A DNA stretch of 22,684 nucleotides from a virus (lineage: Duplodnaviria > Heunggongvirae > Uroviricota > Caudoviricetes). The notes beneath the pieces were generated by a model that saw nothing but the letters and a program-made list of their open reading frames with translations, searched no databases and had not been told where the DNA came from. How positions within the stretch are numbered: the stretch's first letter is position 1; every line of letters begins with the position of its first letter. Made by a program: the position numbers and the translations under genes. The stretch covers positions 1-22,684 of IMG/VR virus record IMGVR_UViG_2711768076_000014; one strand, 5' to 3'. Shown piece after piece: positions 3,189 through 22,684 of the stretch.

Positions 3189-3576
3189 TTAATCTGCTGT
3201 TCCCTACAGATAATACGCGTTTAAAACGCCGGGGGGTTTTTATCTCGGGTGAAGCTGGGATCTGCGTAGAAGTACCGCTATTGTATGCCTGCGTTGCGCC
3301 AGCAAAACGATAGCGTACTTTCAGGCGTTCCAGCGTTTCGACAATCACCGCTGAAGAGCCTCCGGGAGCCGCTGGCATTACCTTGCCTGTAATACCGTTC
3401 CGCCGTGCTTTGGTATACACGCCATAACCAACCTTCAACAGTTGCCCTTCCCTGACAAGCTCGCGCAATACCCGACCAACCTGATCGTAGCCTGCAATAT
3501 CTTTAAAGTCGTCACGAGTGAATACGTAACGTTTAGAACGTTTCAGTCGTGACTGAATGCGTGCTTTTATCGTCAT
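3181..3576 (-). CDS. AbiEi-like antitoxin / winged-HTH transcriptional regulator (about 131 aa from the ATG with SD)
   Basis: MTIKARIQSRLKRSKRYVFTRDDF...VGRVLRELVREGQLLKVGYGVY resembles the AbiEi N-terminal wHTH; GGAGG sits 5 nt before the ATG ending at 3576; the six-frame ORF extends to 3645 but the upstream in-frame ATGs lack an SD. Confidence 0.6.
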   Translation of the reverse strand: MTIKARIQSRLKRSKRYVFTRDDFKDIAGYDQVGRVLRELVREGQLLKVGYGVYTKARRNGITGKVMPAAPGGSSAVIVETLERLKVRYRFAGATQAYNSGTSTQIPASPEIKTPRRFKRVLSVGNSRLNG

Positions 3577-3603
3577 ATTCGCCTCCAGAGTCATTGCATA
3601 AAG

Positions 3604-3646
3604 AGTAGCAAAAATACGACATTTTAGATAGCAAACATACGACATT
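3604..3646 (-). promoter_or_regulatory. Two tandem 20-bp direct repeats (period 23 bp) upstream of abiEi; putative operator/promoter
   Basis: Plus-strand agtagcaaaaatacgacatt (3604-3623) and gatagcaaacatacgacatt (3627-3646) match at 18 of 20 positions, immediately upstream of the SD-supported abiEi start. Confidence 0.4.
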
Positions 3647-4479
3647 CATTTTGCTGATAACGCTGACGGAAAGTGCTTCGCCACGATATCATTCATCTTA
3701 TCCACCAGATCCAGTCGCTTGAAAGTGATATGCCCACTGCCTTTCTGGTAATAGCGGATGACAAATAAATCGTCATCAAATACCTGTTCATGCGGGTGAG
3801 CACTAACGAAGTCCATAAACCGAATCGCAACATCATGCCGGTTATCGGGAATGGCCTTCCCATCCAGCAGATAGAACATACGCTCCAGATCGGCAAGCTG
3901 ATCTCGCCGCCAGCCCCAGTTCAGGCTGTAGCCCCATCTGTCATGCTTCACCAGATTGTTAACGATAATCTTCTTACCGAAATAACAGGGATTATTGGTT
4001 TTGTAGTCCCAGCTCAATCCCTTAAATACATTGATAACCCCACGTTCGAAAACGTCCTGCTTATTGTGGTGAAGTTGTTCAAAGGTACTCAGAATGTTGG
4101 CTTCGCTAATCGCCGGGAGATCGCCCTCTTCCAGGTTCTTTGCCCACTGACTGCGGGCTTCGGCATCCATCAGAGTCAACATCCCAGACTTCAGCATGAG
4201 ATCGCGCCAGATGCTGCGATCGATATTTCGGGTGATCACCGGCATCGCTTTGTCGGTTGGCTGCATCAGCCAGCAGTCAAAGGCATATCCATTTCGCATT
4301 GCCCAGGTTCCAGCCACATCACCGCCAATACTGGATGTCAGGCTGGAGATATCATCAAGTTTTTGGATTAACGCCGCTATCTGGTTCAGTGCACTATCAC
4401 GTCCTGTGACGATACGCTCGATACTGGTCGAGCAAATTAGTTCGTTATGATCGGTTAAGACTTCAGCTTCTGTCTGCAT
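3646..4479 (-). CDS. Hypothetical protein, 277 aa, no family assignable
   Basis: Long ORF filling the space between the hsdM divergent promoter region and the abiE operator; no catalytic motif recognised. Confidence 0.6.
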   Translation of the reverse strand: MQTEAEVLTDHNELICSTSIERIVTGRDSALNQIAALIQKLDDISSLTSSIGGDVAGTWAMRNGYAFDCWLMQPTDKAMPVITRNIDRSIWRDLMLKSGMLTLMDAEARSQWAKNLEEGDLPAISEANILSTFEQLHHNKQDVFERGVINVFKGLSWDYKTNNPCYFGKKIIVNNLVKHDRWGYSLNWGWRRDQLADLERMFYLLDGKAIPDNRHDVAIRFMDFVSAHPHEQVFDDDLFVIRYYQKGSGHITFKRLDLVDKMNDIVAKHFPSALSAK

Positions 4480-4784
4480 AATCTTTCATCCGTAAAAAAT
4501 ACACTCGCCGTTAGTAGCAGACGAATTATCCACTGGTGAAAGATTGGGTAAATAATGAGATTGAAAATCGGGAAGGTGACTCGCAATAAATTATCTGATC
4601 ACCTACGGATGGGCGATGGGCATATAAAGTAGCCTCCTGACTCAAGCGGTGAATGCTGAGTAAGATGCACTAACAATCTGGTACTGAATCCCCTCCTCAC
4701 CGTCATACAAATCTGAAAAACCAAACAACTTCCGGTAAAATCCCGGCAAAAGCCGACGTTAAAAACACATTCAAAGGATAAAAA

Positions 4785-6337
4785 ATGACCAGTCTTCAGC
4801 AGCGCGCGGAGCTTCATCGCCAAATCTGGCAAATTGCTAACGATGTCAGAGGTTCGGTCGATGGATGGGATTTTAAGCAATACGTTCTGGGCGCGCTTTT
4901 CTACCGTTTTATCAGCGAAAATTTTTCCAGCTATATTGAAGCCGGTGATGACAGTATCTGTTATGCGAAACTGGATGACAGCGTAATTACTGATGACATT
5001 AAAGACGATGCCATCAAAACTAAAGGCTACTTCATCTACCCCAGTCAGCTTTTCTGCAACGTAGCTGCGAAAGCAAATACTAATGACAGACTGAATGCAG
5101 ATTTAAACAGCATCTTCGTTGCTATCGAAAGTTCTGCTTACGGTTATCCTTCAGAAGCTGACATCAAAGGTTTGTTTGCTGATTTCGATACCACCAGTAA
5201 CCGCCTGGGTAACACCGTTAAAGATAAAAATGCCCGCCTGGCTGCGGTTCTGAAAGGGGTTGAAGGGTTAAAACTTGGTGACTTCAACGAACATCAGATT
5301 GACCTGTTCGGTGATGCCTATGAGTTCCTGATTTCTAACTATGCGGCAAATGCCGGTAAGTCAGGCGGTGAGTTCTTTACACCGCAGCACGTCTCCAAGC
5401 TGATTGCACAACTGGCTATGCACGGGCAGACCCACGTTAACAAAATCTACGACCCGGCAGCGGGTTCCGGCTCACTGTTGTTGCAGGCGAAAAAACAGTT
5501 TGATAACCATATCATCGAAGAAGGCTTTTTCGGTCAGGAAATCAACCATACGACCTATAACCTGGCGCGTATGAACATGTTTTTGCACAACATCAACTAC
5601 GACAAGTTTGATATCAAGCTTGGCAATACGCTGACTGAACCGCACTTCAGAGATGAAAAACCGTTTGATGCCATCGTTTCTAACCCGCCGTATTCGGTGA
5701 AATGGATTGGCAGCGATGACCCGACGCTGATTAACGATGAGCGTTTTGCCCCGGCTGGCGTTCTGGCCCCCAAATCCAAAGCTGACTTTGCGTTTGTATT
5801 ACATGCGCTGAACTATCTTTCGGCCAAAGGTCGTGCTGCGATTGTCTGCTTCCCGGGTATTTTTTACCGTGGCGGCGCAGAGCAGAAAATCCGTCAGTAT
5901 CTGGTCGATAATAACTATGTCGAAACCGTAATTTCACTGGCTCCGAACCTGTTCTTTGGCACCACCATTGCCGTAAACATTCTGGTTCTGTCCAAACATA
6001 AAACGGATACCAACGTTCAGTTTATTGATGCCAGCGAACTGTTCAAAAAAGAGACCAACAACAATATCCTGACCGATGCCCATATCGAACAAATTATGCA
6101 GGTATTCACCAGCAAGGAAGATGTTGCTCATCTGGCAAAATCTGTCGCGTTTGAAGCCGTTGTAGCGAATGACTATAACCTGTCGGTGAGCAGCTATGTA
6201 GAATCGAAAGATAACCGCGAAATTATCGATATTGCTGAGCTGAATGCAGAACTGAAAACTACGGTCAGCAAAATCGACCAGTTGCGTAAAGATATCGACT
6301 CAATTGTGGCAGAGATTGAAGGTGACGAGGTGCAGGG

Positions 6338-6341
<4 letters not shown>
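4785..6341 (+). CDS. hsdM: Type I restriction-modification N6-adenine DNA methyltransferase subunit HsdM, 518 aa
   Basis: SAM-binding [10 protein letters not shown] and catalytic NPPY ([12 protein letters not shown]); N-terminal HsdM-type domain; 4-bp ATGA overlap with hsdS. Confidence 0.9.
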
Positions 6342-7543
<1,202 letters not shown>

Positions 7544-7665
7544 TTGACCATTGCTACCGATCGGGCCACCTTAACACCCGGTCAGTATATAGACTATTTT
7601 TTTACGCGCCGGAAGTCACTCTTAACGCCCTTCCGGCTCTTGCCAGGCGGCACAAAGGATGCGCT

Positions 7666-10600
7666 ATGACTCATCAAACACACACCATTGCTGAATCCAA
7701 TAACTTTATCGTCCTTGATAAGTACATCAAAGCTGAGCAAACAAGCGACAGCTACCAGAGCGAATCGGACCTGGAACGTGAACTGATTCAGGACCTGCGG
7801 AATCAGGGTTATGAATTTATTTCGGTAAAATCACAGTCAGCGATGCAGGCCAACGTTCGGGAACAGCTTCAGAGCCTCAATGGTGTGGTGTTTAATGACA
7901 GCGAGTGGCGGCGTTTCACGGAGCAGTATCTGGATAACCCGAGCGATGGCATTCTGGATAAGACCCGTAAAATCCATATCGACTATATTTGCGACTTTAT
8001 TTTTGATGACGAGCGTCTTGAGAACATCTATTTGATAGATAAAAAGAATCTCATGCGCAATAAGGTGCAGATTATCCAGCAGTTTGAGCAGGCGGGTTCT
8101 CATGCTAACCGTTATGACGTCACGATCCTGGTTAATGGCTTACCACTGGTACAAATCGAACTGAAAAAGCGCGGCGTGGCGATTCGTGAGGCTTTCAACC
8201 AGATACATCGTTACAGTAAAGAGAGTTTTAACAGCGAAAATTCCCTGTTTAAGTATCTGCAACTGTTTGTCATTTCTAACGGCACCGATACCCGTTACTT
8301 TGCCAACACCACAAAGCGCGATAAAAACAGTTTTGACTTCACCATGAACTGGGCGAAATCAGACAACACGCTGATTAAAGACCTCAAAGATTTTACCGCT
8401 ACCTTTTTCCAGAAACATACTCTGCTTAATGTTCTGGTGAACTACAGCGTGTTCGATATTAGCCAGACGCTACTGGTGATGCGACCGTACCAGATTGCCG
8501 CTACCGAACGGATCTTATGGAAAATCAACAGTTCCTATAAAGCGAAAAACTGGTCTAACCCCGAAAGCGGTGGCTTTATCTGGCACACTACCGGTTCCGG
8601 TAAAACACTGACCAGCTTTAAAGCCGCGCGCCTGGCAACAGAACTGGACTTTATTGATAAAGTCTTCTTTGTGGTCGACAGGAAAGACCTCGATTACCAG
8701 ACGATGAAGGAATATCAGCGTTTTTCCCCAGACAGCGTCAACGGCTCGGAAAATACCGCAGGCCTTAAACGAAATCTGGATAAGGACGATAACAAAATTA
8801 TCGTCACCACTATTCAGAAACTTAATAACCTGATGAAAGCAGAAAGCGACCTGCCTGTATACAATCAGCAAGTGGTGTTTATATTTGATGAATGTCACCG
8901 CAGCCAGTTTGGAGAAGCGCAGAAAAATCTGAAGAAGAAATTCAAACGCTATTATCAGTTTGGTTTTACCGGCACACCTATTTTCCCGGAAAACGCTTTA
9001 GGCTCAGAAACGACCGCCAGCGTATTTGGTCGTGAATTGCATTCATATGTGATTACCGATGCGATTCGTGATGAAAAAGTGCTCAAATTCAAGGTGGACT
9101 ATAACGATGTGCGGCCCCAGTTTAAATCTTTAGAGACAGAAACCGACGAGAAAAAACTGAGTGCGGCTGAAAATCAGCAGGCGTTTCTTCATCCCATGCG
9201 TATACAGGAAATTACGCAATATATTCTGAATAACTTCCGCCAGAAGACCCACCGTACTTTCCCAGGTTCCAAAGGCTTTAATGCCATGCTGGCAGTGAGT
9301 AGCGTGGATGCCGCGAAAGCCTATTACGCGACGTTTAAACGGTTACAAGAGGAAGCAGCTAATAAATCGGCTACCTATAAACCGCTGCGTGTTGCGACAA
9401 TCTTCTCCTTTGCCGCCAATGAAGAACAAAATGCCATTGGTGAAATTTCCGATGAAACTTTTGATACCAGCGCAATGGACAGCAGTGCTAAAGAGTTTCT
9501 TGACGCTGCAATTCGTGAGTATAACAGCTATTTTAAAACTAACTTCAGCACCGACAGTAACGGTTTTCAGAACTACTATCGTGATTTAGCCCAACGGGTT
9601 AAAAATCAGGATATCGATCTGTTAATTGTCGTTGGGATGTTTTTAACCGGCTTCGACGCTCCAACATTGAACACGCTATTCGTCGATAAAAACTTGCGTT
9701 TTCACGGCCTGATGCAGGCATTCTCCCGCACCAACCGCATTTATAACGCCACTAAAACCTTCGGTAACATCGTCACTTTCCGGGATCTGGAACGCTCAAC
9801 CATTGATGCCATAACGCTGTTTGGTGATAAAAATACCAAAAATGTAGTGTTAGAAAAGAGTTATGCAGAGTATATGGAAGGCTTTACTGATGCTGCCACT
9901 GGTGAAGCTAAACGCGGCTTTATGGCAGTAGTTTCAGAACTGGAACAACGGTTCCCTGACCCTGCCAGTATTGAAAGTGAAAAAGAGAAGAAAGACTTCG
10001 TTAAACTGTTTGGTGAATACCTGCGTGCCGAGAACATCCTGCAAAACTATGATGAATTTGCCACGCTGAAAGCCCTGCAACAAATCGATCTTAGCGATCC
10101 TGTTGCGGTAGAAAAATTCAAAGAAGAACATTATGTGGATGATGAAAAGTTCGCTGAATTACAAACGATTCGTCTCCCTGCTGAACGCAAGATTCAGGAT
10201 TATCGTTCTGCCTATAACGATATTCGTGACTGGCAGCGCCGCGAGAAAGAGGCTGGCAAAAAAGAAAAGTTAACTACTGACTGGGATGACGTGGTTTTTG
10301 AAATCGATTTGCTGAAGTCTCAGGAAATAAACCTGGATTATATCCTTGGACTGATTTTCGAACACAACAGACAAAACAAAGGTAAGGGCGAAATGACCGA
10401 AGAGGTCAAGCGCTTAATTCGTTCGAGCCTTGGGAACCGTGCCAAAGAAGGTCTGGTGGTCGATTTTATTCAACAAACAAACCTGGATGATTTGCCGGAT
10501 AAAGCCAGCATCATTGACGCGTTTTTTACCTTTGCTCAACGCGAACAGCAACGTGAAGCAGAAGCATTGATCAAAGAAGAAAATCTCAATGAAGAGGCGG

Positions 10601-10782
10601 CGAAACGCTATATTCGCACGTCTTTAAAACGCGAATACGCCACCGAAAATGGCACGGAATTAAACGAGACATTGCCAAAACTCAGTCCGTTAAATCCGCA
10701 ATATAAGACGAAAAAACAGACGGTTTTCCAGAAGATCGTCGCGTTTATTGAGAAGTTTAAAGGTGTAGGCGGGCAGATATAA
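7666..10782 (+). CDS. hsdR: Type I R-M restriction subunit HsdR (helicase-nuclease), 1038 aa, EcoR124-like
   Basis: Endonuclease-type D...ELK block ([20 protein letters not shown]), Walker A TGSGKT, DECH box ([10 protein letters not shown]); length and N-terminus [20 protein letters not shown] match my recollection of EcoR124I HsdR; separated from hsdS by 122 bp, suggesting its own promoter. Confidence 0.9.
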
Positions 10783-10964
10783 TGTATTAATCCGAACCTG
10801 ATCTGGCAGATAGCTGTCAGATCAGGACTGAGCTAATACAAATTAATATCGAACCGAAAATACCAACGCCTGTACCAACATTTTTCGTTTGCGATGGGTT
10901 GGAATTGGTTAGCCCTGAGAGAGTTAAAATAGCGAGAAAGATAGGTAACTAACGGATTTCAGAC

Positions 10965-10992
10965 ACAAAAAAAGCCGCTCTTGAGCGGCTCG
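10965..10992 (-). terminator. Rho-independent terminator downstream of the retron RT gene
   Basis: Stem agccgctc / gagcggct with ttga loop, followed on the minus strand by a run of 7 or more U; sits between convergent hsdR and RT genes. Confidence 0.55.
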
Positions 10993-11006
10993 ATTTGCAT
11001 ACGATG

Positions 11007-11022
11007 TGGTGCGAAGGCCGGA
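11007..11022. other. Degenerate att-like copy of the leuX tRNA 3' end (putative distal attachment site of the P4-like element)
   Basis: tggtgcgaaggccgga matches the reverse complement of the leuX 3' end (TGGTGCCGAAGGCCGGA, recalled from memory) with one 1-nt deletion; P4 is known to integrate at leuX. Confidence 0.3.
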
Positions 11023-11262
11023 ATAGAATAACTATATAACTCATTGAACATGATGATAAAAATTTTATAGCTTATGACTTGTGCCCCATTTTGTGCCCCC
11101 AACAAAATCTTATTGTTGCTAACTAGCACAATAAATGAATTAGCAAGATAGAGTTGCCTAGTTAGGTTCCGTCTTACAGAGCCTAACCAGAACAACCAAA
11201 CCTCTGAACCAACCTTGCGCAAGCTAGATAAAGTCATGCTGATTTATTAGGACAACAAGCTA

Positions 11263-12210
11263 TTAAATTTCATATTTTGAAATTTCGCTGATTACATCAT
11301 CCCCATATTTCTTAATCATGGAGGCAAAGAATTTATGTTCAATAAATTTCGCATAGCCTAATTCTCCTTTAAGGGTTAGAATTTCTTTCTCAGATAAAAC
11401 CCCACACACATAATAATGTATTTTACTTCTTAAAAGACGCTTTCTATCACGACCTAAAGACAAATAACCATCAGTCGTAATAGTTACACCAGTTACATGT
11501 CTATTAAACTTCCTTGAGGTAAAAACTGTTTTCTCATGGTTTATTTTAATATTCCTAAGATTTACTACGTTAAGAACTTCCCTTACTAACTTAGGAACAT
11601 CAAATAAAGCTCCTTTGACTTTGGTGCTAAACGTAAGATCATCAGCATACCTTGAGTAGGTAATACCCAAATCCTTGCATCTTTTCGATATTTCCTCATC
11701 GAAGAAATACATTACTGTATTTGAAATAATGGGAGAAGAAGGTGCTCCAACACTTAGGCGTAACGGGCTATTTCTTCTTAACTTCCAGAAGAAAAGATTT
11801 TTAAGAACAAAGATATCAGTATCAGTTAGTTCAACGCCATAATCTTTTAAGACAGATAAAAGATTATGGGGTTTGATACTCATAAAAAAGTTTTTAAAAT
11901 CCATTTTAAGCAAATAATCATTATTACAATGCATTAACGCATTAGATCTAATACTTTTATCGGCTTCATAAGCGAAAGCATTTTCATGAACTTTCAAATT
12001 AGCCAACATATGATTGATTACTACCTTCTGTAAGGCTTTAACTTGCCTAGCTGGTTGTGCAATTAATCTATATCCATTACCATTTCTTTTGGCGATAGGA
12101 TAAATTTTATATCTGCGTGGAATAGTAACAATATACCTTTTAGCCTCTTCTTCGCTAAGAAAAAGACCTTTTGAAATATAACTTAGCAACTCCATTCTAA
12201 GCCCCTCCAC
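11263..12210 (-). CDS. Retron-type reverse transcriptase, 315 aa
   Basis: RT blocks YRLIAQPARQVKALQKVV, LKMDFKNFFMSI, SVGAPSSPIISN, YSRYADDLTFS (YADD catalytic box) and VTGVTIT (retron VTG signature); size as for Ec73/Ec86-class retron RTs. Confidence 0.85.
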   Translation of the reverse strand: MEGLRMELLSYISKGLFLSEEEAKRYIVTIPRRYKIYPIAKRNGNGYRLIAQPARQVKALQKVVINHMLANLKVHENAFAYEADKSIRSNALMHCNNDYLLKMDFKNFFMSIKPHNLLSVLKDYGVELTDTDIFVLKNLFFWKLRRNSPLRLSVGAPSSPIISNTVMYFFDEEISKRCKDLGITYSRYADDLTFSTKVKGALFDVPKLVREVLNVVNLRNIKINHEKTVFTSRKFNRHVTGVTITTDGYLSLGRDRKRLLRSKIHYYVCGVLSEKEILTLKGELGYAKFIEHKFFASMIKKYGDDVISEISKYEI

Positions 12211-13183
12211 GCACGATATTGATTTGATTTAGAGCATTTTTCCTTTTTTTTGCAGTCTCGTCCATATCTTTAGCATCCATACTTAAGTAAGATTGTCGGA
12301 TTGCAACCTTAATATTCATAGAATCCTTTATTTTACCACTAGCACTGATACCAAATTTAAGTTTACTCTCTCTATGCCCTCGGGAATAGAAGTAGTCTGT
12401 ACCACTGTAAGATAATGATGAGGTTAATTTCATCTTTTCAAGCAAATAAAGTAAACGAGTTATTATTTTTTGTGGCACATCTATATCCATACAGTATAGT
12501 GCCCACTCTATTTCGCTTTTCTTGATTGGTTCTGATAAAAGGATTATTTCGTAAATCAATATAGCTAGGTGCCCAGTATTTTCAGGGTTATATCGCTCCG
12601 TTTTTTTTACACGTTTTAATCTAGAATGAATATCATGGTAGATAAGCTCAACCTCATCATATTTCATACGATCCGATTTTGGCCATGGATAAACTGATAC
12701 TGAGGCCTCATCTATTTTTTTAAGATACTCCAAAGGGCCTAAATATATAAAAGAAGATCTAGCAGGAATATTTTTTCGTTCATTTCCCTCAATCTCCTCA
12801 AATGGTGCGACTACATGCAATTTTTGAGCTAGAGACTTCCTATTAACAAATAATCCAAGCTCAACTAACGAACCTGCACTTTCTAAACAGATAACAACTA
12901 ATGTTGAAATATTTGCAATATCATCTTCAAAGCTCATTAGATCTGAATATGCCCCCTCTCTGAAGTAGTCATGGAAGTTCTCAGCTAAAATAAGAGAATC
13001 TGACAATTCAGGTTTGTGGCCTGCTACATAAGTAAATATGTGGTCTCGTACACTCATTGGAGTGGAATTTATCGGCCCACCACAAACAAAAATAATAGGA
13101 GGCATGAACTGAACAGTGAAATTTGAATATTTCAAATCTCCAAACTGCTCTTGTAATGCATTCATATATGCAGAATCACTCAC
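12197..13183 (-). CDS. Retron accessory/effector protein (type II-like, possibly nucleoside deoxyribosyltransferase-like plus DNA-binding), 328 aa
   Basis: Lies between the msd hairpin and the RT gene and overlaps the RT start by 14 bp; AT-rich like the RT gene; family assigned by context only. Start is GTG at 13183 or ATG at 13165. Confidence 0.6.
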   Translation of the reverse strand: MSDSAYMNALQEQFGDLKYSNFTVQFMPPIIFVCGGPINSTPMSVRDHIFTYVAGHKPELSDSLILAENFHDYFREGAYSDLMSFEDDIANISTLVVICLESAGSLVELGLFVNRKSLAQKLHVVAPFEEIEGNERKNIPARSSFIYLGPLEYLKKIDEASVSVYPWPKSDRMKYDEVELIYHDIHSRLKRVKKTERYNPENTGHLAILIYEIILLSEPIKKSEIEWALYCMDIDVPQKIITRLLYLLEKMKLTSSLSYSGTDYFYSRGHRESKLKFGISASGKIKDSMNIKVAIRQSYLSMDAKDMDETAKKRKNALNQINIVRGGA

Positions 13184-13480: not shown

Positions 13481-13810
13481 CATTTAAACAAAAATAAATC
13501 TAACAATTGAAAGCAATACCTTATTGAATACAGCATTCTTATATCTCTCTTGATATCGCAACATCACAATTATCACCGTTAGTGCGGGCAGCCCCGCACG
13601 CCTGCCCGCTTCGCTTAACAGACTGGTTTTCATGCACCTCATTAATCGTCTCAGAAGCCAGCACACAAGGGTTTTCTCGTCAAAAATGGTGCATAAGACT
13701 CATGCGTTTTCATGCGCCATAGACATGCACTCATGCGCTCTCATGTCAGCCAGGAAAAGGGGGTAAAAAATCCCGGTACTGGACCGGGATTACGTGGGCG
13801 TTCTTTCTAA

Positions 13811-14083
13811 TCAGACAGGAATCTGCTGACGGCTTGACAGTTTTGACGCGGAGCCATAGCGATTGAGCGTTTTCTGTTGTTTTTCCGGGGATTGTGCTTT
13901 GTCTGATAGCTGTTCATTGCGCCGGGGTTTCATGATTATCTTATCCACACTCTCCAGTGCCGTAAATGTGCAGGAACATTCCAGATTCTGGCACTGATAC
14001 CACGAGCGTTTAACTGACGGAGCTTCATAGGCTGCTGTTCTGGCGTGTGCAACTGTACCGCATTCCGGACATTTAAGTGCCAT
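13811..14083 (-). CDS. Ogr/Delta-family zinc-finger late-gene transcriptional activator, about 90 aa
   Basis: MALKCPECG...YQCQNLECSCTF matches the Cys4 Ogr/Delta pattern; AGGAG sits 8 nt before the ATG at 14083 (the six-frame ORF extends to a GTG at 14092). Confidence 0.8.
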   Translation of the reverse strand: MALKCPECGTVAHARTAAYEAPSVKRSWYQCQNLECSCTFTALESVDKIIMKPRRNEQLSDKAQSPEKQQKTLNRYGSASKLSSRQQIPV

Positions 14084-14088
14084 TAATA

Positions 14089-14640
14089 TCACTCCTGTAT
14101 ATCGTTAATGTCATTCAGGCGTTGCTGAAAACGCAGATGTTGTGCCGGGGTGTAAGAACCCTGGCAATCACGAATCATCCCGGGGTCAGGCATCAAACCG
14201 GATTCATCCAGGATCTCACGATAATCCCCGGCAATTTCAGGCGGTGTTATTGCCAGCTGGCGAACCAGAGCACTGCGTAATATACGGGACGCAACGTCAA
14301 CCCCTCCGCGCCCCTTCAGGAACGGAGCCAGTGCAGATGTCAGGGCTGCCCCATTCGCCTGCATAAAATTGCTGAGAGCGGCTTCTGTGCAGGCCTCCAT
14401 CAGTAAATGCTGCGAGTAAATGCATTCGCGCGCAGCACAGTTAATTTGCCATTTCAGCACATCCAGACGTTCCCGCAGTAATTCGAGCTGTCGGGCATAA
14501 TCTGCTGGTTTTTCTGTGGCAGCGAGGAGAGATGTTATCTGTTGTTCAACGGCTTTTCGGCTCTCATTATGTCCGGCCCACAGAATACGGGCATTCCGAA
14601 AACTGGTAAGTGCCTGGTCAGGCGTGCCTCGGGCCGTCAT
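14089..14640 (-). CDS. psu: Psu-like polarity-suppression / capsid-decoration protein, 183 aa
   Basis: Blocks LKWQINCAAR, FMQANGAALTSALAPFL and YTPAQHL resemble my recollection of P4 Psu (190 aa); ATGA overlap with the upstream gene. Confidence 0.55.
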   Translation of the reverse strand: MTARGTPDQALTSFRNARILWAGHNESRKAVEQQITSLLAATEKPADYARQLELLRERLDVLKWQINCAARECIYSQHLLMEACTEAALSNFMQANGAALTSALAPFLKGRGGVDVASRILRSALVRQLAITPPEIAGDYREILDESGLMPDPGMIRDCQGSYTPAQHLRFQQRLNDINDIQE

Positions 14641-15380
14641 ACTGCTTTCTCCTTCTCAGCAAGTTCCTGACGAACCTTAATTTTATGCATAGCTGCCGGA
14701 GAGAGTTGATTACTGAAATCCAGACGCGCCGCATAATCCGGGGCAACTCCCGCCAGTTTAAACACCGGGTCCTGCTCAGGCATCGCATCGTTAGCCAGAG
14801 CCGGTCTGGTGATATGTTTATGAATAAAGTCTTTCAGCACTGTGTCCGGGTCATTAACTGAATTCACCACACCCACAACGGCACTGGCTTCCCGGCCCAT
14901 TGTGGATTTAAGCAGGCTCAGCGTCTGAATAAGCGCTTTTCCATGCGACTGCATAAAATCCTCCCAGATTTGTTTTGCGCGAATATCCACAAGAATGTTA
15001 TGCGCGTGGATATACTTTCCGGCTAATTCTGCAGCTTTCTGCGGCAAAAGTGCATTTTCGCTTTCCTGAGCCGCCAGCAGCTCATCAAAATCCTCAAGCG
15101 TTTCTCGTCCCAGCGCAATTTCCGTGCGCAGTTTTTTCATTTCCTTTGAGACCACGCCCTGACTTTCACGAAACAGCGTGCGCCACTCCTCATTCAGTGT
15201 GTTCGTCGTGGCTTCCATTTCAGCGCGACGCTGGCGGATTGTCGCAATATTATCCGCTGCCGCTTTCTGCTGACGACGTGCTTCAAGCCATGCGTTTCTG
15301 GCTGTGTTCATGGTTTCCAGTGCCCGCTGCGTTACAGCCGGAAAAGTGGAAAGGTTGTTATTCACTGCGGTGTTGTTCAT
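14637..15380 (-). CDS. Sid-like external scaffold (capsid size determination) protein, 247 aa, tentative
   Basis: Size close to P4 Sid (244 aa), Ala/Glu/Arg-rich helical character, first gene of the operon with Psu and Ogr/Delta, preceded by AGGAG and TGT-N12-ACA dyads; no direct motif match recalled. Confidence 0.4.
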   Translation of the reverse strand: MNNTAVNNNLSTFPAVTQRALETMNTARNAWLEARRQQKAAADNIATIRQRRAEMEATTNTLNEEWRTLFRESQGVVSKEMKKLRTEIALGRETLEDFDELLAAQESENALLPQKAAELAGKYIHAHNILVDIRAKQIWEDFMQSHGKALIQTLSLLKSTMGREASAVVGVVNSVNDPDTVLKDFIHKHITRPALANDAMPEQDPVFKLAGVAPDYAARLDFSNQLSPAAMHKIKVRQELAEKEKAV

Positions 15381-15415
15381 GACTTCTCCTGTCGGGTTGG
15401 TTCGTTACGTCAATT

Positions 15416-15471
15416 GTGTCGTGGCTGACACAAGCACACTATCGGTGCTCAGTGTGTGGTGGCTGGCACAA
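15416..15471 (-). promoter_or_regulatory. Two TGT-N12-ACA dyads (putative Ogr/Delta-dependent late promoter of the sid-psu-delta operon)
   Basis: tgtGTCGTGGCTGACaca at 15416-15433 and tgtGTGGTGGCTGGCaca at 15454-15471, 36 to 82 bp upstream of the sid-like ATG; P2/P4 late promoters carry this element. Confidence 0.5.
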
Positions 15472-15558
15472 CGGACGCTTGCGGTTATTCAGACGTGGCT
15501 ATGAAAGCCAGCCAGATAAAAATGCCCTCTGTTTCAGTCTGCTTTATGTCCCTGATGC

Positions 15559-15747
15559 GGTGGAACAGGTGAAACATGTGTTACAGCTTTGTTTTATAAG
15601 GCATTTATATACACTGCACCGGTGGAACATCGCGGGTAACAAGGTGGAACAGCGGATTGGCTGGCGTTACATCTGTTCCACCTCACTATTTCAGAAGGTG
15701 GAACAGGTTCAGCCCTGTAAAATACGGTTGTTCCACCTGTTTCACCT
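15559..15747. repeat. Iteron array: at least 6 copies of GGTGGAACAG / CTGTTCCACC in both orientations (putative ori or crr)
   Basis: Copies at 15559, 15621 (variant), 15643, 15673 (inverted), 15697, 15728 (inverted), plus tgtttcacc at 15739; immediately downstream of the primase gene; resembles the P4 alpha-binding octamer TGTTCACC (from memory). Confidence 0.5.
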
Positions 15748-15780
15748 GTTACCCTTAATAAATAAGACTCACGCAAAGCC

Positions 15781-18453
15781 TTAACCCGGCACCTCGCTGT
15801 TGAAGACATAGAGCCTGCGGGGATTCATCTCTGGCGGGCGAATGGTTGTCTGGAGTTTGCCATCAGTGGAGGGCAGCAGGTATCCACGATCTGCGCACAG
15901 ACGCGCCACCTTGCGCGGGTCAAATCCCCTGCAGATTTCTTTCCAGCCGGACGGCATGACATAGAACGTAGTGACAGCTTCCGTGCCCTGCGCGGTACTG
16001 CCTTTCTCCACCCTGCGCCAGCCCACCATATTGCCGGGGCGGTTGCGCTCGTCATACCAGTCTGCAAAGCGGCTGTACTGATTCGCGGTAAAGAAACTGC
16101 GAACCTGCTCCAGTGCGGCGATATCTTCCTGATTGGCGGTGTGCCCGCGATCTTTCAGCCATGCGTTCAGGCAGACGCGGGTTGCCCGCAGTGCTTCACC
16201 CTCAGGCCAGCCGGTGATACCCAGACGGGTTGCCAGTTCACCTGCCATCGCCACCAGAGCAAAGCGGTTCACAGCCCGGCCCACCTGATTGCCTGCATCT
16301 TTCGGAGTCAGGGCGGCAGCATATTCCTTCATCAGCGATTTTGCCTGTGCCGTTAGTCCGTTAAGATCAGCGGTCAGTGCTTTCAGCCACTCCCGGAACG
16401 GCGAACCGTAGTAGCAGGACGTGGCCCATTCAAGATGCTCTGCCAGAGCCTTGCCGCTGTCGAAGCCGTGCAGCTCCTCAAAAACGCCAAACTTCCCGGA
16501 ATCGCTGGGGATCTGGATCATCCTGACTTCCATCCCGGCAAAAGTACGCTCACCGGCCTTTGCCGCATGTTCGGTCAGAGACAACTCGCCAGTTGAAAAG
16601 AACAACAGGCGCCAATGCTTACGGGTACGCAGCTCACCGTCCGTACCGGCACGGCCCTTGCCCTGACCGTTTGCCAGCATGTAGGCGATATTGCCTGCCT
16701 CGCGTCCGTCAACTTCCCGGATCTCATCAAGCATCATGGCGGCATCGTTGCGGCGGCTGGCGCATCCCTCCAGCGCGTTGCCGGTGGCCCGCCATGTCTG
16801 CCAGTAGTCAGGCCCGCCGCAGACGGAGGTTGCCGCTTTCATGGTGGTGGTCTTACCGTCTGTCGATTCCCCTTTGAGGTGGTAGCCGCCGCCGTCCATA
16901 CCAACCAGCCGTAACAGTGGTGCAGCAAAGGCCAGGCTGACAGCAAATGCCACGCGGGAGTTGCCGGTACAGTAGCGGGATACATGCTCCCGCCATTCCT
17001 CTGTTGTGCCCGACACGCGGAAATCACGCCCCTGCACGGAAGTGGTCTGGAGAATGACACCCTCTGCACCTTCACCGCTGACCTCATCCTGCAGGACGTA
17101 AACCTGACCATGCCAGCCAGTACGACTGACGCAGGTCACGCGGCGTTCCGGTTTACACAGTGAGATATATTCCATCAGGCGTGCGCGTGCCTCACCGGTG
17201 GTGCTGATATAAGACAGCCCGTTAACCAGCAATACCCGGCGCAGTTCCTCACCACTGCCGCTCAGCATTTCCATCGGCATCGCCCAGCGGCGACACTCAC
17301 CCCACGTATCTTCCCATTCCAGCAGTCGTCCGAAGTTACCGCCATCGGCATCGCAGGTGATTGCCGTCACGCGCAGCGGGCTGCATATTTTGACGTTCTG
17401 GATCTCCGTCTCACCGTTGCGCTGTACCTGCTTTTCATACCAGAGATATTCCTGGGTAAGACGGAACCCGTGCGGCAGTTGCGTGCGGCCCTCCCCGCAC
17501 AGCACCAGACCGTTACGAAAGGCTTCACGGGCGCGGGTAATACCGTGCTCCCGATGGAAGTCATTCCAGTCGGCCTTAATCTCTCCCGGTGGCAGCGTCA
17601 TCCAGCCGCCAACAGCTTTTGCCGCCCGTTCAGCAAAGGCTCTGCCGGGATTCTCACCCCCGTCCTGAAAATCGTTATCACCGGCGATGATAATTTTTAC
17701 CTCAGGCCAGCGTGCCCGCAGCGACTGCGCCACATTGGGCAGGTTGCCCGCAGATATGGCAGCCACTACGCATCCGGCAGTGAGCTGACTTACCGTCAGC
17801 GCCGTAGCGTAACCTTCGGTAATCACCACCTGTACCGGTGGTTCAGACGGTAACGGGCTGAGCGACACAAACGCGCCTTTCATCGTGCTGCCGGGCAGTA
17901 TGCTTTTTTCACCCGTCGGGGCGATAAGCTGTGCACCAGTCACGGCTCCGGTGTTGGTCGTGAGTGGTAACAGCAGGGAACCGGCAGGAAAATCCTTACC
18001 GCTGATATGCTGCACGCTTCCGGTCAGAGAGGCCGGGTATCCGGCGAACCCTTTTCCTGTCAGATAGGCGCTTTCTCCCGTGTGGCTCTCTTTCATCAGC
18101 GCCGCCACGGTAAGACCCATGTCGCGTTTAGGGGCTTTTTTTCTGGCAGGCTTAACAGGCAGTTCCTGCACATCCGGCACATTAAGCACCTGCGCCACCT
18201 CCTGCGCAGCCTTTCTGACGCTGTAACCGGTTACGAGCTTAACCAGATCCAGACCGTCACCATTGCCACACTGGCTGCAGATCCACGTCCCGCGCCCGTC
18301 AAGGTCATCAAGGCGAAAACGATCCTTGCCCCCACATTTCGGGCAGGGACCGTGCCTGCCGTTTTCAGGTACATCAATACGCAGCATCTGGAGAATAACG
18401 GGCCATTTCCCCCGTGCGGCGGCTGAAATCTGCGTAACCGTCTGTATTGTCAT
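15781..18453 (-). CDS. Phage/plasmid primase-helicase (P4 alpha-like), 890 aa
   Basis: N-terminal zinc-binding CPKCGGKDRF...CSQCGNGDG, Toprim-like IIAGDNDFQDGGENPG, P-loop GESTDGKTT; largest ORF of the element. Confidence 0.85.
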   Translation of the reverse strand: MTIQTVTQISAAARGKWPVILQMLRIDVPENGRHGPCPKCGGKDRFRLDDLDGRGTWICSQCGNGDGLDLVKLVTGYSVRKAAQEVAQVLNVPDVQELPVKPARKKAPKRDMGLTVAALMKESHTGESAYLTGKGFAGYPASLTGSVQHISGKDFPAGSLLLPLTTNTGAVTGAQLIAPTGEKSILPGSTMKGAFVSLSPLPSEPPVQVVITEGYATALTVSQLTAGCVVAAISAGNLPNVAQSLRARWPEVKIIIAGDNDFQDGGENPGRAFAERAAKAVGGWMTLPPGEIKADWNDFHREHGITRAREAFRNGLVLCGEGRTQLPHGFRLTQEYLWYEKQVQRNGETEIQNVKICSPLRVTAITCDADGGNFGRLLEWEDTWGECRRWAMPMEMLSGSGEELRRVLLVNGLSYISTTGEARARLMEYISLCKPERRVTCVSRTGWHGQVYVLQDEVSGEGAEGVILQTTSVQGRDFRVSGTTEEWREHVSRYCTGNSRVAFAVSLAFAAPLLRLVGMDGGGYHLKGESTDGKTTTMKAATSVCGGPDYWQTWRATGNALEGCASRRNDAAMMLDEIREVDGREAGNIAYMLANGQGKGRAGTDGELRTRKHWRLLFFSTGELSLTEHAAKAGERTFAGMEVRMIQIPSDSGKFGVFEELHGFDSGKALAEHLEWATSCYYGSPFREWLKALTADLNGLTAQAKSLMKEYAAALTPKDAGNQVGRAVNRFALVAMAGELATRLGITGWPEGEALRATRVCLNAWLKDRGHTANQEDIAALEQVRSFFTANQYSRFADWYDERNRPGNMVGWRRVEKGSTAQGTEAVTTFYVMPSGWKEICRGFDPRKVARLCADRGYLLPSTDGKLQTTIRPPEMNPRRLYVFNSEVPG

Positions 18454-18833
18454 ACTTCCCCCTGATACAACGTCACACCGGTACTGCAGAAGTCATCAAA
18501 GGCCGCCGGAAGCGTGCGGTACATCTCCGCCATCACTTCACAGCCGCGCGCGGTCAGTACCGGCGGCGCGGTCAGCAGTGACGGCTCCAGCATGTCAGTC
18601 AGCAGTGCCAGCGCGGCAGCGGCGCCCTGTGCTTCGCCGTACTCGTTAATCAGTACGCACTCGATATGCAGCGCAATGGCCATTTCAATACGCTCCACCG
18701 TCAGGCTGTGCGGACCATACTGATCACTGCCAGTTTCGTTCAGCATTTTCTGCCGCCATGCTGAAGCAATAGCCCGCCGGTAAAGCGCGGTGGTCATTTC
18801 TGCCGGGAAAATGGAAACCTGCGGCTGGTTCAT
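18450..18833 (-). CDS. Hypothetical P4-like small protein, 127 aa
   Basis: AGGAGG 6 nt upstream of ATG; stop overlaps the primase start (ATGA); start overlaps the upstream ORF stop. Confidence 0.5.
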   Translation of the reverse strand: MNQPQVSIFPAEMTTALYRRAIASAWRQKMLNETGSDQYGPHSLTVERIEMAIALHIECVLINEYGEAQGAAAALALLTDMLEPSLLTAPPVLTARGCEVMAEMYRTLPAAFDDFCSTGVTLYQGEV

Positions 18834-19114
18834 CTGGCACCTCCTTCAATCAGTGCGCAGCTGTGTGCAATATCCGTCAAATCTGCCAGCAGGTACTCCA
18901 TCAGCGCGGCGACACCATGCGCACAGCCAGCGTCCAGTGCTCCGGCCTGAGACGGGTATTCAGAAAAGAGAAGCTGGAGCATGTCGCAGGCATTTCTTGC
19001 GCGGGTCAGTTTTCCGAAACTGTCCTCTGACAACCCATAGGCAAAAGCACCGGTATTGTGTTTTTCAGGCAAAGTGTGGCCCTGAGCACCGTTGTGCCCG
19101 TTTGAAATATTCAT
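18830..19114 (-). CDS. Hypothetical P4-like small protein, 94 aa
   Basis: GGAG 6 nt upstream of ATG; translationally coupled to the downstream gene. Confidence 0.45.
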   Translation of the reverse strand: MNISNGHNGAQGHTLPEKHNTGAFAYGLSEDSFGKLTRARNACDMLQLLFSEYPSQAGALDAGCAHGVAALMEYLLADLTDIAHSCALIEGGAR

Positions 19115-19145
19115 CGTGGATTACTCCGTTTTCAGCGGTATTTTG

Positions 19146-19505
19146 TCAGAGAAACTTTGAATAGTGACCGTCGTCAGGCTCAGCAGAACGCCGTATGCTA
19201 CGCTCCCGCCAGCGGATAAATAGCACAGACGGATGCAGTGTCAGCGGGCCGGAACCACTACCGCCAGCAGGAGCTGGTGCAGGCTTCAAGAGCGGTACAT
19301 CAAACAGGCGCGTATACCGCTGTTCAAACCATGCCAGAGGGCAGGAAGAAAGCTGGTTGTCGCTGTCATGACGTATCAGCACTTCACAGCTGAATTCAGG
19401 ATTAACCAGCGCCACAGAGGGCGAGGCTTCTATTAATCGGATAATCGTGACCGTCCAGCCACGTTCATGCTGCCAGCGTTCGCCGGGGTGCGGATAATTA
19501 CGCAT
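19146..19505 (-). CDS. Hypothetical P4-like small protein, about 119 aa
   Basis: GGAGG 5 nt upstream of the ATG at 19505 (MRNYPHPGERWQ...); the six-frame ORF extends further to 19535. Confidence 0.45.
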   Translation of the reverse strand: MRNYPHPGERWQHERGWTVTIIRLIEASPSVALVNPEFSCEVLIRHDSDNQLSSCPLAWFEQRYTRLFDVPLLKPAPAPAGGSGSGPLTLHPSVLFIRWRERSIRRSAEPDDGHYSKFL

Positions 19506-19674
19506 GTTCACCTCCGCAGGGAATGCGCCCGGCAAAGCTCAGTACATAGTCCGGGGCAAGTCTGCGCCGCGCTGACCGCTCGTTATCTGCGGTGATCCTT
19601 AACATCACAGGACGGGCATTGCGTTGACTGCGGTTGATCGCCGCAAATAACCAGGTACACTTCTGTTTAGCCAT
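19498..19674 (-). CDS. Hypothetical small basic protein, about 58 aa
   Basis: GAGGT 7 nt upstream of the ATG at 19674 (MAKQKCTWLF...); stop overlaps the next gene start; C-terminal part of a longer six-frame ORF that I otherwise reject. Confidence 0.35.
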   Translation of the reverse strand: MAKQKCTWLFAAINRSQRNARPVMLRITADNERSARRRLAPDYVLSFAGRIPCGGEHA

Positions 19675-19750
19675 CTTCGTTACCTCATTTAGCGGATTGG
19701 TCAGAAGCCCGGTTAGTGTTGCTGCACTGTCGGGCTTCGCACTCACAAGG

Positions 19751-19840
19751 TGAATCGCACCTTTAATTTTAAAGCTACCCTTAAGTGAATCGCACTTCAA
19801 GCTTTTTATTATCATTTTTTTTGCATATACTGAATCGCAC
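19751..19840. promoter_or_regulatory. Three direct copies of TGAATCGCAC in the divergent control region
   Basis: Exact 10-mers at 19751-19760, 19786-19795 and 19831-19840, between the leftward small-gene cluster and the rightward 61-aa gene; the last copy overlaps a TATACT -10-like hexamer (19826-19831). Confidence 0.4.
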
Positions 19841-19861
19841 CTAACGCGAGGAGATCCAGTA

Positions 19862-20047
19862 ATGGCAACGAGTTCAACTAACAACAAGTCGCAGCAACTT
19901 AATGCTCGTTTCCCACATGATGTAGTTGCAGAATTAGAAAGCAACCTTGAAGATGGAGAAACGAAAGCGCAATTCATTGTTACGGCTGTAAAAGGCGAGA
20001 TTAAACGCCGACAGCGCAGGAAAAATAAGCCAGAGCAAGGAAGTTGA
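19862..20047 (+). CDS. Small putative DNA-binding regulator, 61 aa, basic C-terminus
   Basis: AGGAG 8 nt before ATG; the only plus-strand gene in the P4-like module, divergent from the small-gene cluster; basic tail KRRQRRKNK. Confidence 0.45.
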   Translation: MATSSTNNKSQQLNARFPHDVVAELESNLEDGETKAQFIVTAVKGEIKRRQRRKNKPEQGS

Positions 20048-20143
20048 ATAGAGAAGCCAACAGACGTTCTCTCTGTTTCCATGTTAATTTCAGTAAGCGA
20101 CAATATTTTTAAGCCCACAAATTCATTATGTCGGGCTTTTTTA

Positions 20144-20374
20144 TTAGTGATTTTCATATCGCTCACCACGAGAGGCATATATTTGCTCTTGAATCCAGTG
20201 ATCCACTTCGCTTTCAACAAATGAAATTGCACGAGTTCCTATTTTCACCGGACGGGGAAATGTATTGTTTGCAAGCTGTTTGTAAAGCCATGCCTTGCTA
20301 CGCTGAACGCGTCTTAAGACCTCTTTTGCTGAGATAAGAGTCTGATTATCTGAAAAGCTGTTTGCATATTCCAT
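20144..20374 (-). CDS. alpA: AlpA-family phage transcriptional regulator / excisionase-like HTH protein, about 76 aa
   Basis: LISAKEVLRRVQRSKAWLYKQLANNTFPRPVKIGTRAISFVESEVDHWI is the classic AlpA HTH; GGAG 7 nt before the ATG at 20374 (the six-frame ORF extends to 20419). Confidence 0.8.
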   Translation of the reverse strand: MEYANSFSDNQTLISAKEVLRRVQRSKAWLYKQLANNTFPRPVKIGTRAISFVESEVDHWIQEQIYASRGERYENH

Positions 20375-21421: not shown

Positions 21422-22684
21422 TTATTTTCCATGCATACGCGCAAAATCATATGGTGTGACAGATCCATTCTTATTAGCATCAATATAATCAGCCCACCAC
21501 TGCAGCATTAATCTTCTTTCTTCAAGATATTCGGAAGTATGCATATATGAACCTTTCACATTTTTTCGTTCAACGTGGCTTAACTGTCTTTCAATGGCAT
21601 CATCATTCCATAGTTTCGACTCACTTAGCGCACCACGCGCCATAGTTCTAAACCCATGACCACATACTTCAGTTTTCGTATCATATCCCATTACACGTAA
21701 GGCGTTATTTACTGTATTTTCACTCATTACTTTTTTAGGATCATGATCGCTGGGAAATATAACCTCACCTTTACCACTCAAGGCATGTAAACGTTTAAAA
21801 ATATCAAATGCTTGTTTGCTAAGCGGAACAATATGTTCAGTTTTCATCTTCATCCCACGCTCAGAGTGTTTTACGCCGGGAATAGGCTTACGAATTCCGG
21901 GTATTGTCCACTCGCTTCGTTCAAAGTTAACCTCACTCCAGCGAGCAAAACGCATCTCACTTGAACGTATAAATGTGAGTAGCGTTAATTCAACGGCAAG
22001 CCGTGTCATTAGTCGCCCTTTATAGCGTGATAGTCTTTCAAGAAGCTCAGGGATTCTTTTTGGGGGTAGTGCTGGGTGGTGGGTTGCTTTAACGCTTAAA
22101 AGCGCTCCAGCCATATCGCATGCAGGATTTGATTCAAGGAGGTCATTCTGCACACCAAAACGCATAATTGCGGTTACGCGCTGCATCAGTCGCTGCGCGA
22201 CATCATGTTTACCCGCCGTATCGACAGCTTTGATTGGATTGAGAAGCTGGCTGGTTCTCAACGTTCTGGCATCGATTTGACCTATCGAGGGGAAAATATA
22301 CTGCTCAAGTGTCAGCAGAACACGACGGCTATGATCTTCGCTCCAAGTAAGGTTACTTGCGTGCCATTGCCTTGCGATAGTTTCAAATAAATATGCCCCC
22401 TCAATTTCAGCTTGTGCCCCCTTTTGCTCAGCTTTGGGGTCAATACCCTGAGACAACAATTTCTTTGCTGCATCGCGCTTACCCCGCGCTTCAGCCAAAG
22501 TGACCGTCGGGTATACACCAAAAGCGAGTCGATCTTCCTTTTTGTCAGAGGGGCGGCGATATTTCATGCGCCAGTACTTAGAACCTTTAGGGGAGACCTC
22601 AAGATACAAACCGCCTCCATCAGCCATTTTATAAGCTTTCTCTTTCGGCTTTGCGGTCTCTATCTGGCGAGCGTTGAGTTTCAT
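21422..22684 (-). CDS. int: P4-type tyrosine integrase, 420 aa
   Basis: N-terminal MKLNARQIETAKPKEKAYKMADGGGLYLEVSPKGSKYWRMKYR is the P4-integrase arm-binding signature; C-terminal catalytic region with HGFRTMARG and a downstream Tyr; start codon at the window edge, tRNA presumably just beyond. Confidence 0.9.
   Translation of the reverse strand: MKLNARQIETAKPKEKAYKMADGGGLYLEVSPKGSKYWRMKYRRPSDKKEDRLAFGVYPTVTLAEARGKRDAAKKLLSQGIDPKAEQKGAQAEIEGAYLFETIARQWHASNLTWSEDHSRRVLLTLEQYIFPSIGQIDARTLRTSQLLNPIKAVDTAGKHDVAQRLMQRVTAIMRFGVQNDLLESNPACDMAGALLSVKATHHPALPPKRIPELLERLSRYKGRLMTRLAVELTLLTFIRSSEMRFARWSEVNFERSEWTIPGIRKPIPGVKHSERGMKMKTEHIVPLSKQAFDIFKRLHALSGKGEVIFPSDHDPKKVMSENTVNNALRVMGYDTKTEVCGHGFRTMARGALSESKLWNDDAIERQLSHVERKNVKGSYMHTSEYLEERRLMLQWWADYIDANKNGSVTPYDFARMHGK

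Follow-up and report, generated by a model that had tools for sequence, protein, structure and literature searches.

A putative single iteron-type replication origin next to the primase-helicase gene of a P4-like satellite in Escherichia coli

Background

The Reps of the staphylococcal islands (SaPIs) are self-loading initiator-helicases whose C-terminal winged helix binds iterons (PMC9371898). SaPI origins consist of 6–12 iterons situated directly downstream of rep and flanking an AT-rich region, with at least two iterons on each side in opposite directions (PMC9371898). Origins of the same layout occur in the PICIs of E. coli, and in EcCICFT073 a fragment containing pri-rep-ori maintained a plasmid, whereas the rep-mutant control did not (PMC6092414, Fillol-Salom et al. 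2018).

Phage P4 is organised differently. Its alpha protein, which has a D5/SF3-type helicase and an origin-binding domain of its own, binds type 1 iterons (TGTTCACC) at two places 4.5 kb apart, ori1 directly upstream of Psid and crr directly downstream of the primase gene. The P4 Cnr protein acts via the C-terminal winged helix of alpha.

Here we compare these systems with a locus in a stretch of 22,684 nucleotides, referred to as the window. A preliminary description of this DNA had reported a repeat cluster downstream of a primase gene, likened the repeats to the octamer iterons of P4 alpha, and taken the region as likely to be the replication origin or its cis-acting partner. A literature search that covered few subscription-journal papers retrieved no description of this origin or replicase in P4-like elements.

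Results and discussion

The element and its gene order

The DNA of the window comes from an E. coli chromosome, and positions 13700–18900 are 100% identical to strain M217 and other strains. The element is a P4-like satellite integrated at tRNA-Leu in E. coli; in M217 it adjoins this tRNA gene, the site used by phage P4. The 420-bp intergenic region was present in 331 of 5426 complete E. coli genomes (about 6%), while a DNA search of this region against phage records gave no match, the element being absent from deposited phage genomes. The gene order on the minus strand runs from the integrase through genes for a hypothetical, an AlpA-like HTH and an Icd-like protein to DUF5375, the primase-helicase, the repeats, Sid, Psu and Ogr/Delta. 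The main genes are:

21422–22684, minus strand: integrase
18450–18833, minus strand: DUF5375 (Cnr-family) gene, directly upstream of the primase
15781–18453, minus strand: primase-helicase of 890 aa, the proposed initiator
14637–15380, minus strand: Sid homologue (E value of 1e-12 to P4 Sid)
14089–14640, minus strand: Psu
13811–14092, minus strand: Ogr/Delta zinc-finger protein

The sid-psu-delta block is located after the replicase gene and co-oriented with it, whereas in P4 it is divergent from the early operon.

The repeat cluster

Scanning of the whole window revealed six exact copies of GGTGGAACA, starting at 15559 (+), 15621 (+), 15643 (+), 15674 (-), 15697 (+) and 15729 (-). Two copies of GGTGAAACA, a one-base variant of GGTGGAACA, were found at 15568 (+) and 15738 (-), each abutting one GGTGGAACA. 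Comparison with relatives disclosed a decayed ninth site at 15665–15673, which reads CGTTACATC in the window and CGTTCCACC in the relatives. The cluster spans 15559–15746 (188 bp), and its eight strong sites and one decayed site are found in both orientations, the 9-bp sequence GGTG[G/A]AACA forming three tandems of abutting copies and three sites that stand singly. The preliminary count of at least six repeats in both orientations within about 190 bp downstream of the primase gene was accordingly confirmed, and the coordinates given for them were accurate. The elements of the cluster and its primase-side border are:

15559–15576, plus strand: iterons 1–2, GGTGGAACA abutted by GGTGAAACA in tandem (period 9 bp) on the sid-promoter side; positions conserved in relatives
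15579–15641, no strand assigned: two GTAACA-type sites, TGTTAC (15579–15584) and GGGTAACA (15634–15641), both invariant
15585–15615, no strand assigned: AT-rich spacer (26% G+C), a candidate DNA-unwinding element between two iteron sets
15621–15629, plus strand: iteron 3, GGTGGAACA, an exact match whose position is conserved in relatives
15643–15651, plus strand: iteron 4, GGTGGAACA, 22 bp past iteron 3, its position conserved in relatives
15665–15682, minus strand: abutting tandem of the decayed copy (15665–15673; intact GGTGGAACG in relatives) and iteron 5, GGTGGAACA (15674–15682)
15697–15705, plus strand: iteron 6, GGTGGAACA, an exact match whose position is conserved in relatives
15729–15746, minus strand: iterons 7–8, GGTGGAACA and GGTGAAACA, an abutting tandem on the primase side, opposite in direction to iterons 1–2
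15741–15783, minus strand: stretch from stop codon to iteron, including a GGGTAACA site (15747–15754) and the AT block TCTTATTTATTAAGG; 15747–15783 is nearly invariant in relatives

The nearest iteron lies 35 bp past the stop codon of the primase-helicase gene (15781–15783). The spacer at 15585–15615, with 26% G+C as against 47% for the whole cluster, separates sites 1–2 from the remaining sites and is off-centre, having two sites on one side and six to seven on the other. The outer tandems are opposed in direction (15559–15576 on the plus strand and 15729–15746 on the minus strand).

With regard to occurrence elsewhere, GGTGRAACA was not found outside the cluster in the 22,684 bases of the window, and 35 kb of M217, comprising the identical element and its flanks, contained only one other copy, which is isolated and outside the element. 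The second iteron cluster that the preliminary description proposed looking for elsewhere in the element was found neither in the window nor in these 35 kb, and the two-part ori/crr layout of P4 therefore does not apply. In 200 first-order Markov versions of the window, the maximum count of a 9-mer (on either strand) per 200 bp was 2–4 in 199 runs and 6 in one. The observed repeat count is far above these simulations, and the cluster is real.

It is extremely improbable that the repeats are incidental, be it as a coding part of ORF 15416–15784 or of ORF 15594–15809 (minus strand), or as a chance cluster. A 122-codon ORF is indeed open across the region in the window, but it is broken in relatives having a 98%-identical primase, where the longest open stretch is 62–71 codons compared to 132 in the window. 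RefSeq annotates no CDS here, no Pfam match was obtained, and 48 of 49 related loci have kept the array (see below). The earlier assessment of ORF 15416–15784 as probably non-coding is supported by these results.

A reading of the region as a structured RNA was dropped, as Rfam at gathering thresholds gave no RNA family in the whole window, C4/isrK (P4 CI RNA-type) included.

The adjacent primase-helicase

The 890-aa protein, for which the present annotation is no more than 'TOPRIM and DUF927 domain-containing protein', carries the Pfam domains primase Zn ribbon, TOPRIM and DUF927, and no D5 domains. Its BLASTP similarity to P4 alpha is confined to aa 1–316 (Zn ribbon and TOPRIM; 38% identity). 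The helicase matched SaPIbov1 Rep (8TCH, E value 8e-15) and SCCmec Cch (5DGK, E value 2e-13), and the helicase together with the C-terminal domain is homologous to SaPIbov1 Rep (8TCH) both by sequence and by fold. The C-terminal winged helix extends from about aa 795 to 885, with a putative specificity hot-spot at about 860–870. For aa 701–890 the AlphaFold2 model had a pLDDT of 89; the full-length model was poor in the ATPase core (pLDDT 22–30, aa 520–660), and the fold searches made use of the C-terminal model only. The P4 alpha domain was absent among the matches listed in these searches (best 50 and best 60). On sequence, homology of the C-terminal domain with the origin-binding domain of P4 alpha was rejected (BLASTP; hhalign against alpha aa 601–777, probability 0.1%). 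Only aa 1–316 are alpha-like, and the likely binding domain is of the SaPIbov1 Rep/Cch type. With its C-terminal winged helix, the protein fits the Rep type of self-loading helicase.

In P4 the target of Cnr is the winged helix of alpha; here the C-terminal domain is SaPI Rep-like and hence of a different type. The DUF5375 gene (P4 ORF106/Cnr family) overlaps the start codon of the primase gene in an ATGA sequence (18450–18453).

One alternative is that the cluster is a crr-like auxiliary, required in cis, through looping or handcuffing, for replication or the control of copy number, with replication starting at another site of the element. Proteins of the SaPIbov1 Rep/Cch type, to which the helicase and C-terminal domain can be assigned, have their single origin at precisely this place, however, even though it is also just past the primase gene that P4 keeps its crr, with iterons likewise in both orientations. 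Directly upstream of the primase gene there is moreover a member of the Cnr (DUF5375) family, the P4 copy-number regulator family. Set against this are the lack of a second cluster in the window and in the 35 kb around the identical M217 element, the AT-rich stretch inside the cluster itself, and the missing 120-bp direct-repeat structure of crr. We regard such an auxiliary role as improbable. Of the two roles offered in the preliminary description, that of a single origin is favoured over that of a crr-like partner by the lack of a second cluster.

Conservation and concerted change of the repeats in related loci

One genome per species was scanned for relatives, which yielded 55 loci encoding proteins 57–100% identical to that of the window, 49 of them with usable downstream sequence. 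They belong to Escherichia/Shigella, Citrobacter, Enterobacter, Pantoea, Yersinia, Serratia, Pectobacterium, Xenorhabdus, Proteus, Rahnella and other genera. An array was present in 48 of the 49 loci across Enterobacterales. In 45 of the 49 it consists of 6–12 short repeats within about 330 bp past the stop codon, and in these 45 loci the site positions are nearly superimposable, at about +26–45, +78, +100/109, +126–160 and +190–220 after the stop. Three loci have instead a GTGGGAACA cluster about 1.15 kb downstream of the stop, which suggests an insertion between gene and origin; the clusters are at L039 7826–8029, L047 7799–8020 and L056 7845–8046, with 10–13 copies of GTGGGAACA (Klebsiella spallanzanii, Scandinavium sp. 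and Apirhabdus apintestini). The remaining locus (L054) has no repeat cluster after the primase gene, and its primase frame is interrupted near the 3' end.

The core of the repeat is specific to the lineage, the forms being GGTGGAACA, GGTGTAACA, GGGGTAACA, TGGGTAACA, xTGGTAACA, GCGGTTACA, GTGGATACA, GTGGGAACA and TACTACATGTA. In the Pantoea elements, whose protein is about 90% identical, every aligned copy has T for G at the fifth base, and the spacers between the sites are largely unalignable with those of the window. The spacer corresponding to 15585–15615 has kept its AT-richness in the GGTGTAACA-type relatives but not its sequence. The opposite pattern was observed between two Pectobacterium loci (L030 and L019), in which almost all iterons have one core base changed, although there is hardly any difference in the spacers or in either flank. 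Since positions are conserved while the sequence has changed concertedly, this is what would be expected of sites read by one co-evolving protein, and in the comparative analysis the cluster behaves like a set of initiator-binding sites.

Three GTAACA-type sites were invariant in the comparison with relatives (15579–15584, 15636–15641 and 15747–15752). These sites (GGGTAACA or TGTTAC; 15579–15584, 15634–15641 and 15747–15754) were unchanged where the main iteron had switched from GGTGGAACA to GGTGTAACA, and they may represent a second repeat class or weak (ancestral) sites.

One of the relatives (L017, NZ_JBQPOM010000063.1) is titled Vagococcus sp. WN89Y, a Firmicute. Its element is of the Enterobacterales type and has GGTAACA iterons and a primase-helicase with 66% identity; the record is probably a contaminated or mislabelled assembly.

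Co-variation of the protein with the repeats

When identity to the window protein was binned along its length, no region tracking the iteron class was revealed; only contrasts between close protein pairs with different repeats did so. In these contrasts, non-synonymous (N) and synonymous (S) differences were counted over the last 300 codons:

L030/L019 (Pectobacterium), 98% identity: N:S of 8:5 for the last 40 codons and of 1:31 for the 260 codons before them (p = 5e-5)
L023/L024 (Xenorhabdus), 96% identity: 5:8 in the last 40–50 codons against 5:50 in the rest (p = 0.018)
L025/L028 (Proteus), 97.6% identity: 4:7 in the last 40–50 codons against 2:35 in the rest (p = 0.019)
Window/L006 (Pantoea), 90.6% identity: 5:15 in the last 40–50 codons against 14:85 in the rest (p = 0.31)

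L030 and L019 differ by 17 amino acids, eight of which are within aa 843–885, a segment that held 0–3% of the differences in same-repeat pairs of similar divergence. Pooling of the contrasts, which were chosen post hoc and are not fully independent, gave an odds ratio of 7.3 (p = 6e-9). In the window's own clade (GGTGGAACA versus GGTGTAACA) the C-terminal non-synonymous excess was not significant (p = 0.31), but the changes between the window and Pantoea are still found at recurrent positions, namely 860, 861, 863 and 870. The full set of recurrent positions is 860, 861, 863, 866, 867 and 870 (window numbering). Residue 866 goes together with the iteron base located four positions 5' of AACA, lysine being found with G and arginine with T. 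In three independent near-identical pairs with different repeats, the changes thus cluster at about 860–870 of the predicted winged helix. The type of origin is ordinary, yet this is an unusually clear case of a protein and its putative sites changing together.

It should be underlined that the coding sequence for the winged helix is at most 130 bp from the iterons, and linkage through a short recombination tract might look like co-evolution. In L030/L019 this explanation is made less likely by spacers and flanks that have not changed. Other satellite genes also differ in the close pairs, such as a 242-aa ORF that is 72% identical in L030/L019, and taken alone the covariation may still be compatible with a binding protein other than the primase-helicase.

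The flank toward sid

The cluster is followed on the sid side by a neighbouring feature outside the putative origin:

15415–15470, minus strand: Psid-type late promoter with two TGT-N12-ACA boxes of Ogr/Delta type

Measured to their centres, the two boxes (15415–15432 and 15453–15470; TGTGTCGTGGCTGACACA and TGTGTGGTGGCTGGCACA) precede the sid-like ATG at 15380 by 43.5 and 81.5 bp. This geometry is identical to that of P4 (dyads at 9493–9510 and 9531–9548, sid ATG at 9583). Of the 18 positions in the distal box, 15 agree with the P4 box, and both dyads are conserved in the relatives. The segment is probably a Delta/Ogr-activated late promoter that drives sid-psu-delta. A consensus scan of 15300–15900 found neither a sigma-70 promoter nor an intrinsic terminator; the repeats are therefore no terminator, and the late promoter presumably depends on an activator. 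The iterons begin 88 bp beyond the distal box, compared to 79 bp in P4 (annotated ori type 1 repeats at 9310–9413). As in P4, the candidate origin is located directly upstream of the Delta-dependent sid promoter, and the cluster occupies two P4 positions at once, the ori1 place upstream of Psid and the crr place just past the primase gene.

This proximity bears on another alternative, in which the repeats are operator sites for a transcription regulator, controlling the sid late promoter or read-through from the primase gene, and not an origin. In its favour, the distance from the end of the cluster to the Delta boxes downstream is 88 bp, the primase gene and sid have no intrinsic terminator between them, and pairs with different repeats differ in other satellite genes too. 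The known activator sites (TGT-N12-ACA) are, however, separate from the iterons and have been conserved where the iterons have changed. Where another gene follows (delta-like or other), as in Xenorhabdus, Pectobacterium, Klebsiella and other loci, the primase gene is still accompanied by the array, and the amino-acid changes track the repeats specifically in the winged helix of the primase-helicase. We therefore consider a purely regulatory role quite improbable. A dual role, in which an origin also affects transcription from the adjacent late promoter, may exist.

Comparison with the P4 origin

The likeness to the P4 alpha iterons that was claimed in the preliminary description exists at the DNA level, but the octamer itself is absent from the cluster. 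The P4 iteron GGTGAACAG and GGTG[G/A]AACAG of the window are one inserted base apart, the window repeat being a 9-mer and one base longer than the type 1 iteron that alpha binds at ori1 and crr. With regard to the type 1 octamer (TGTTCACC / GGTGAACA), no GGTGAACA was found in the cluster, and the window has two isolated copies, at 1833 and 19505. Positions 15741–15768 (TCTTATTTATTAAGG followed by iterons) aligned with P4 ori1 9382–9411 in the same orientation relative to sid, with a score of 31 that was reached in 0 of 500 shuffles. The aligned junction is a 28-bp AT-block/iteron segment within the nearly invariant block. The alignment may reflect common descent of the origin DNA or convergence; kinship to P4 ori1 would have as its basis the common location upstream of Psid, the AT-block/iteron junction found in both, and iterons that are nearly identical.

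Further similarities to P4 are iterons in both orientations, the positions directly upstream of Psid (as ori1) and directly downstream of the primase gene (as crr), the alpha-like aa 1–316 of the primase and the Cnr-family gene upstream of it. In contrast to P4 with its separate ori and crr, the window has one cluster, without the 120-bp crr duplication, type 2 repeats and alpha terminator, and neither the helicase nor the binding domain is alpha-like.

Comparison with SaPI and PICI origins

As in SaPIbov1, SaPI1 and SaPI5, the iterons are located directly 3' of the initiator-helicase gene (at 35 bp; in 45 of the 49 related loci they likewise directly follow the gene) and form two sets with opposed outer sites, and the initiator has a C-terminal winged helix; a primase-helicase fusion is found in SaPI5 as well. 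Also in agreement with the SaPI and PICI layout, the number of iterons lies within 6–12 and the two opposed sets surround AT-rich DNA, although they are unequal. Differences concern the length of the iterons (5–6 bp in SaPIs, 9 bp here), the layout (roughly symmetric in SaPIs, sets of two and six to seven here), and the fused primase, which in the window has a Zn-ribbon/TOPRIM of P4-alpha type. The surroundings also differ, a staphylococcal island in the one case and an Enterobacterales P4-like satellite with sid, psu and delta in the other.

EcCICFT073 shares with the element the host species, the unidirectional order int-alpA-...-primase-ori, and iterons straight after the replicase gene. 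In its origin (L059 9997–10284, E. coli CFT073) we observed CTGTCTACC/GGTAGAYAG iterons in both orientations and 9-bp abutting tandems. It differs from the window in the iteron (CTGTCTACC) and in having PICI capsid/PerC genes where the window has sid, psu and delta. Homology to the EcCICFT073 Pri-Rep (584 aa) was rejected, as it has no significant sequence similarity to the window protein.

Every feature of SaPI/PICI origins that could be tested was found at this locus, whereas it lacks three features that define the P4 ori/crr system: the octameric repeat, a layout in two parts and a binding domain of alpha type.

A proposed origin of replication

Taken together, the cluster most probably constitutes the single SaPI/PICI-style iteron replication origin of the P4-like satellite at tRNA-Leu. 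The C-terminal winged helix of the adjacent 890-aa protein would recognise the 9-bp iterons GGTG[G/A]AACA, of which two sets face each other across the AT-rich stretch. On the model of SaPI Rep, these iterons would be the assembly site for hexamers of the DUF927 helicase (MCM-like, self-loading). We infer that these hexamers would melt the AT-rich DNA and that the fused Zn-ribbon/TOPRIM primase would lay down primers, with the locus thereby serving as origin. The architecture would then be that of SaPIs and Gram-negative PICIs, with iterons directly 3' of pri-rep, set in a P4-type genome at the place of P4 ori1.

More tentatively, and with some doubt, one may imagine that a widespread branch of P4-like satellites swapped the helicase/origin-binding part of alpha for a module of SaPIbov1-Rep/Cch type while keeping the P4 primase domain, the Cnr partner and an ori1-related origin. 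The two-part ori/crr would have collapsed to one site, and a handful of exchanges at about residues 860–870 of the winged helix, along with concerted single-base changes in all iterons, would repeatedly have re-programmed the origin specificity. If true, satellites with common hosts and helpers would come to have replicons that are incompatible with one another.

The proposed reading assigns a concrete, testable origin to a satellite family spread across Enterobacterales. It would mean that P4-like satellites are not uniform in replication, one branch using a SaPI/PICI-style initiator and a single origin; current understanding is not overturned. The natural iteron variants, along with few changes in the winged helix, provide a ready map for the evolution of initiator specificity. 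The same map bears on how co-resident satellites avoid sharing replication machinery, and it could guide the design of orthogonal mini-replicons.

Other features of the element

At the nucleotide level, the integrase gene (21479–22684) has 68.6% identity to P4 int over 1.2 kb, and the only other substantial similarity to P4 in the window is one 108-bp stretch of the primase gene. A search of the window for the P4 cos junction gave insignificant matches only. Within the region 18830–20232, an ORF of 244 codons (19498–20232) has no Pfam match and is unannotated in the identical M217 element, for which RefSeq instead has a 119-aa hypothetical protein and a 58-aa Icd-like protein.

Past delta, defence genes occupy 2283–13183 (retron, type I R-M, AbiE and DUF4942), and an HNH gene lies further to the left:

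11263–13183: retron RT (11263–12210) and second retron gene; the identical M217 genes are annotated as retron St85 family RT and effector
4785–10782: type I R-M hsdM/S/R
3646–4479: DUF4942
2283–3645: AbiEi/AbiEii
989–1639: HNH protein

The retron adjoins delta in M217 also, and the M217 genes further left differ; the gene content left of the retron seems to be variable.
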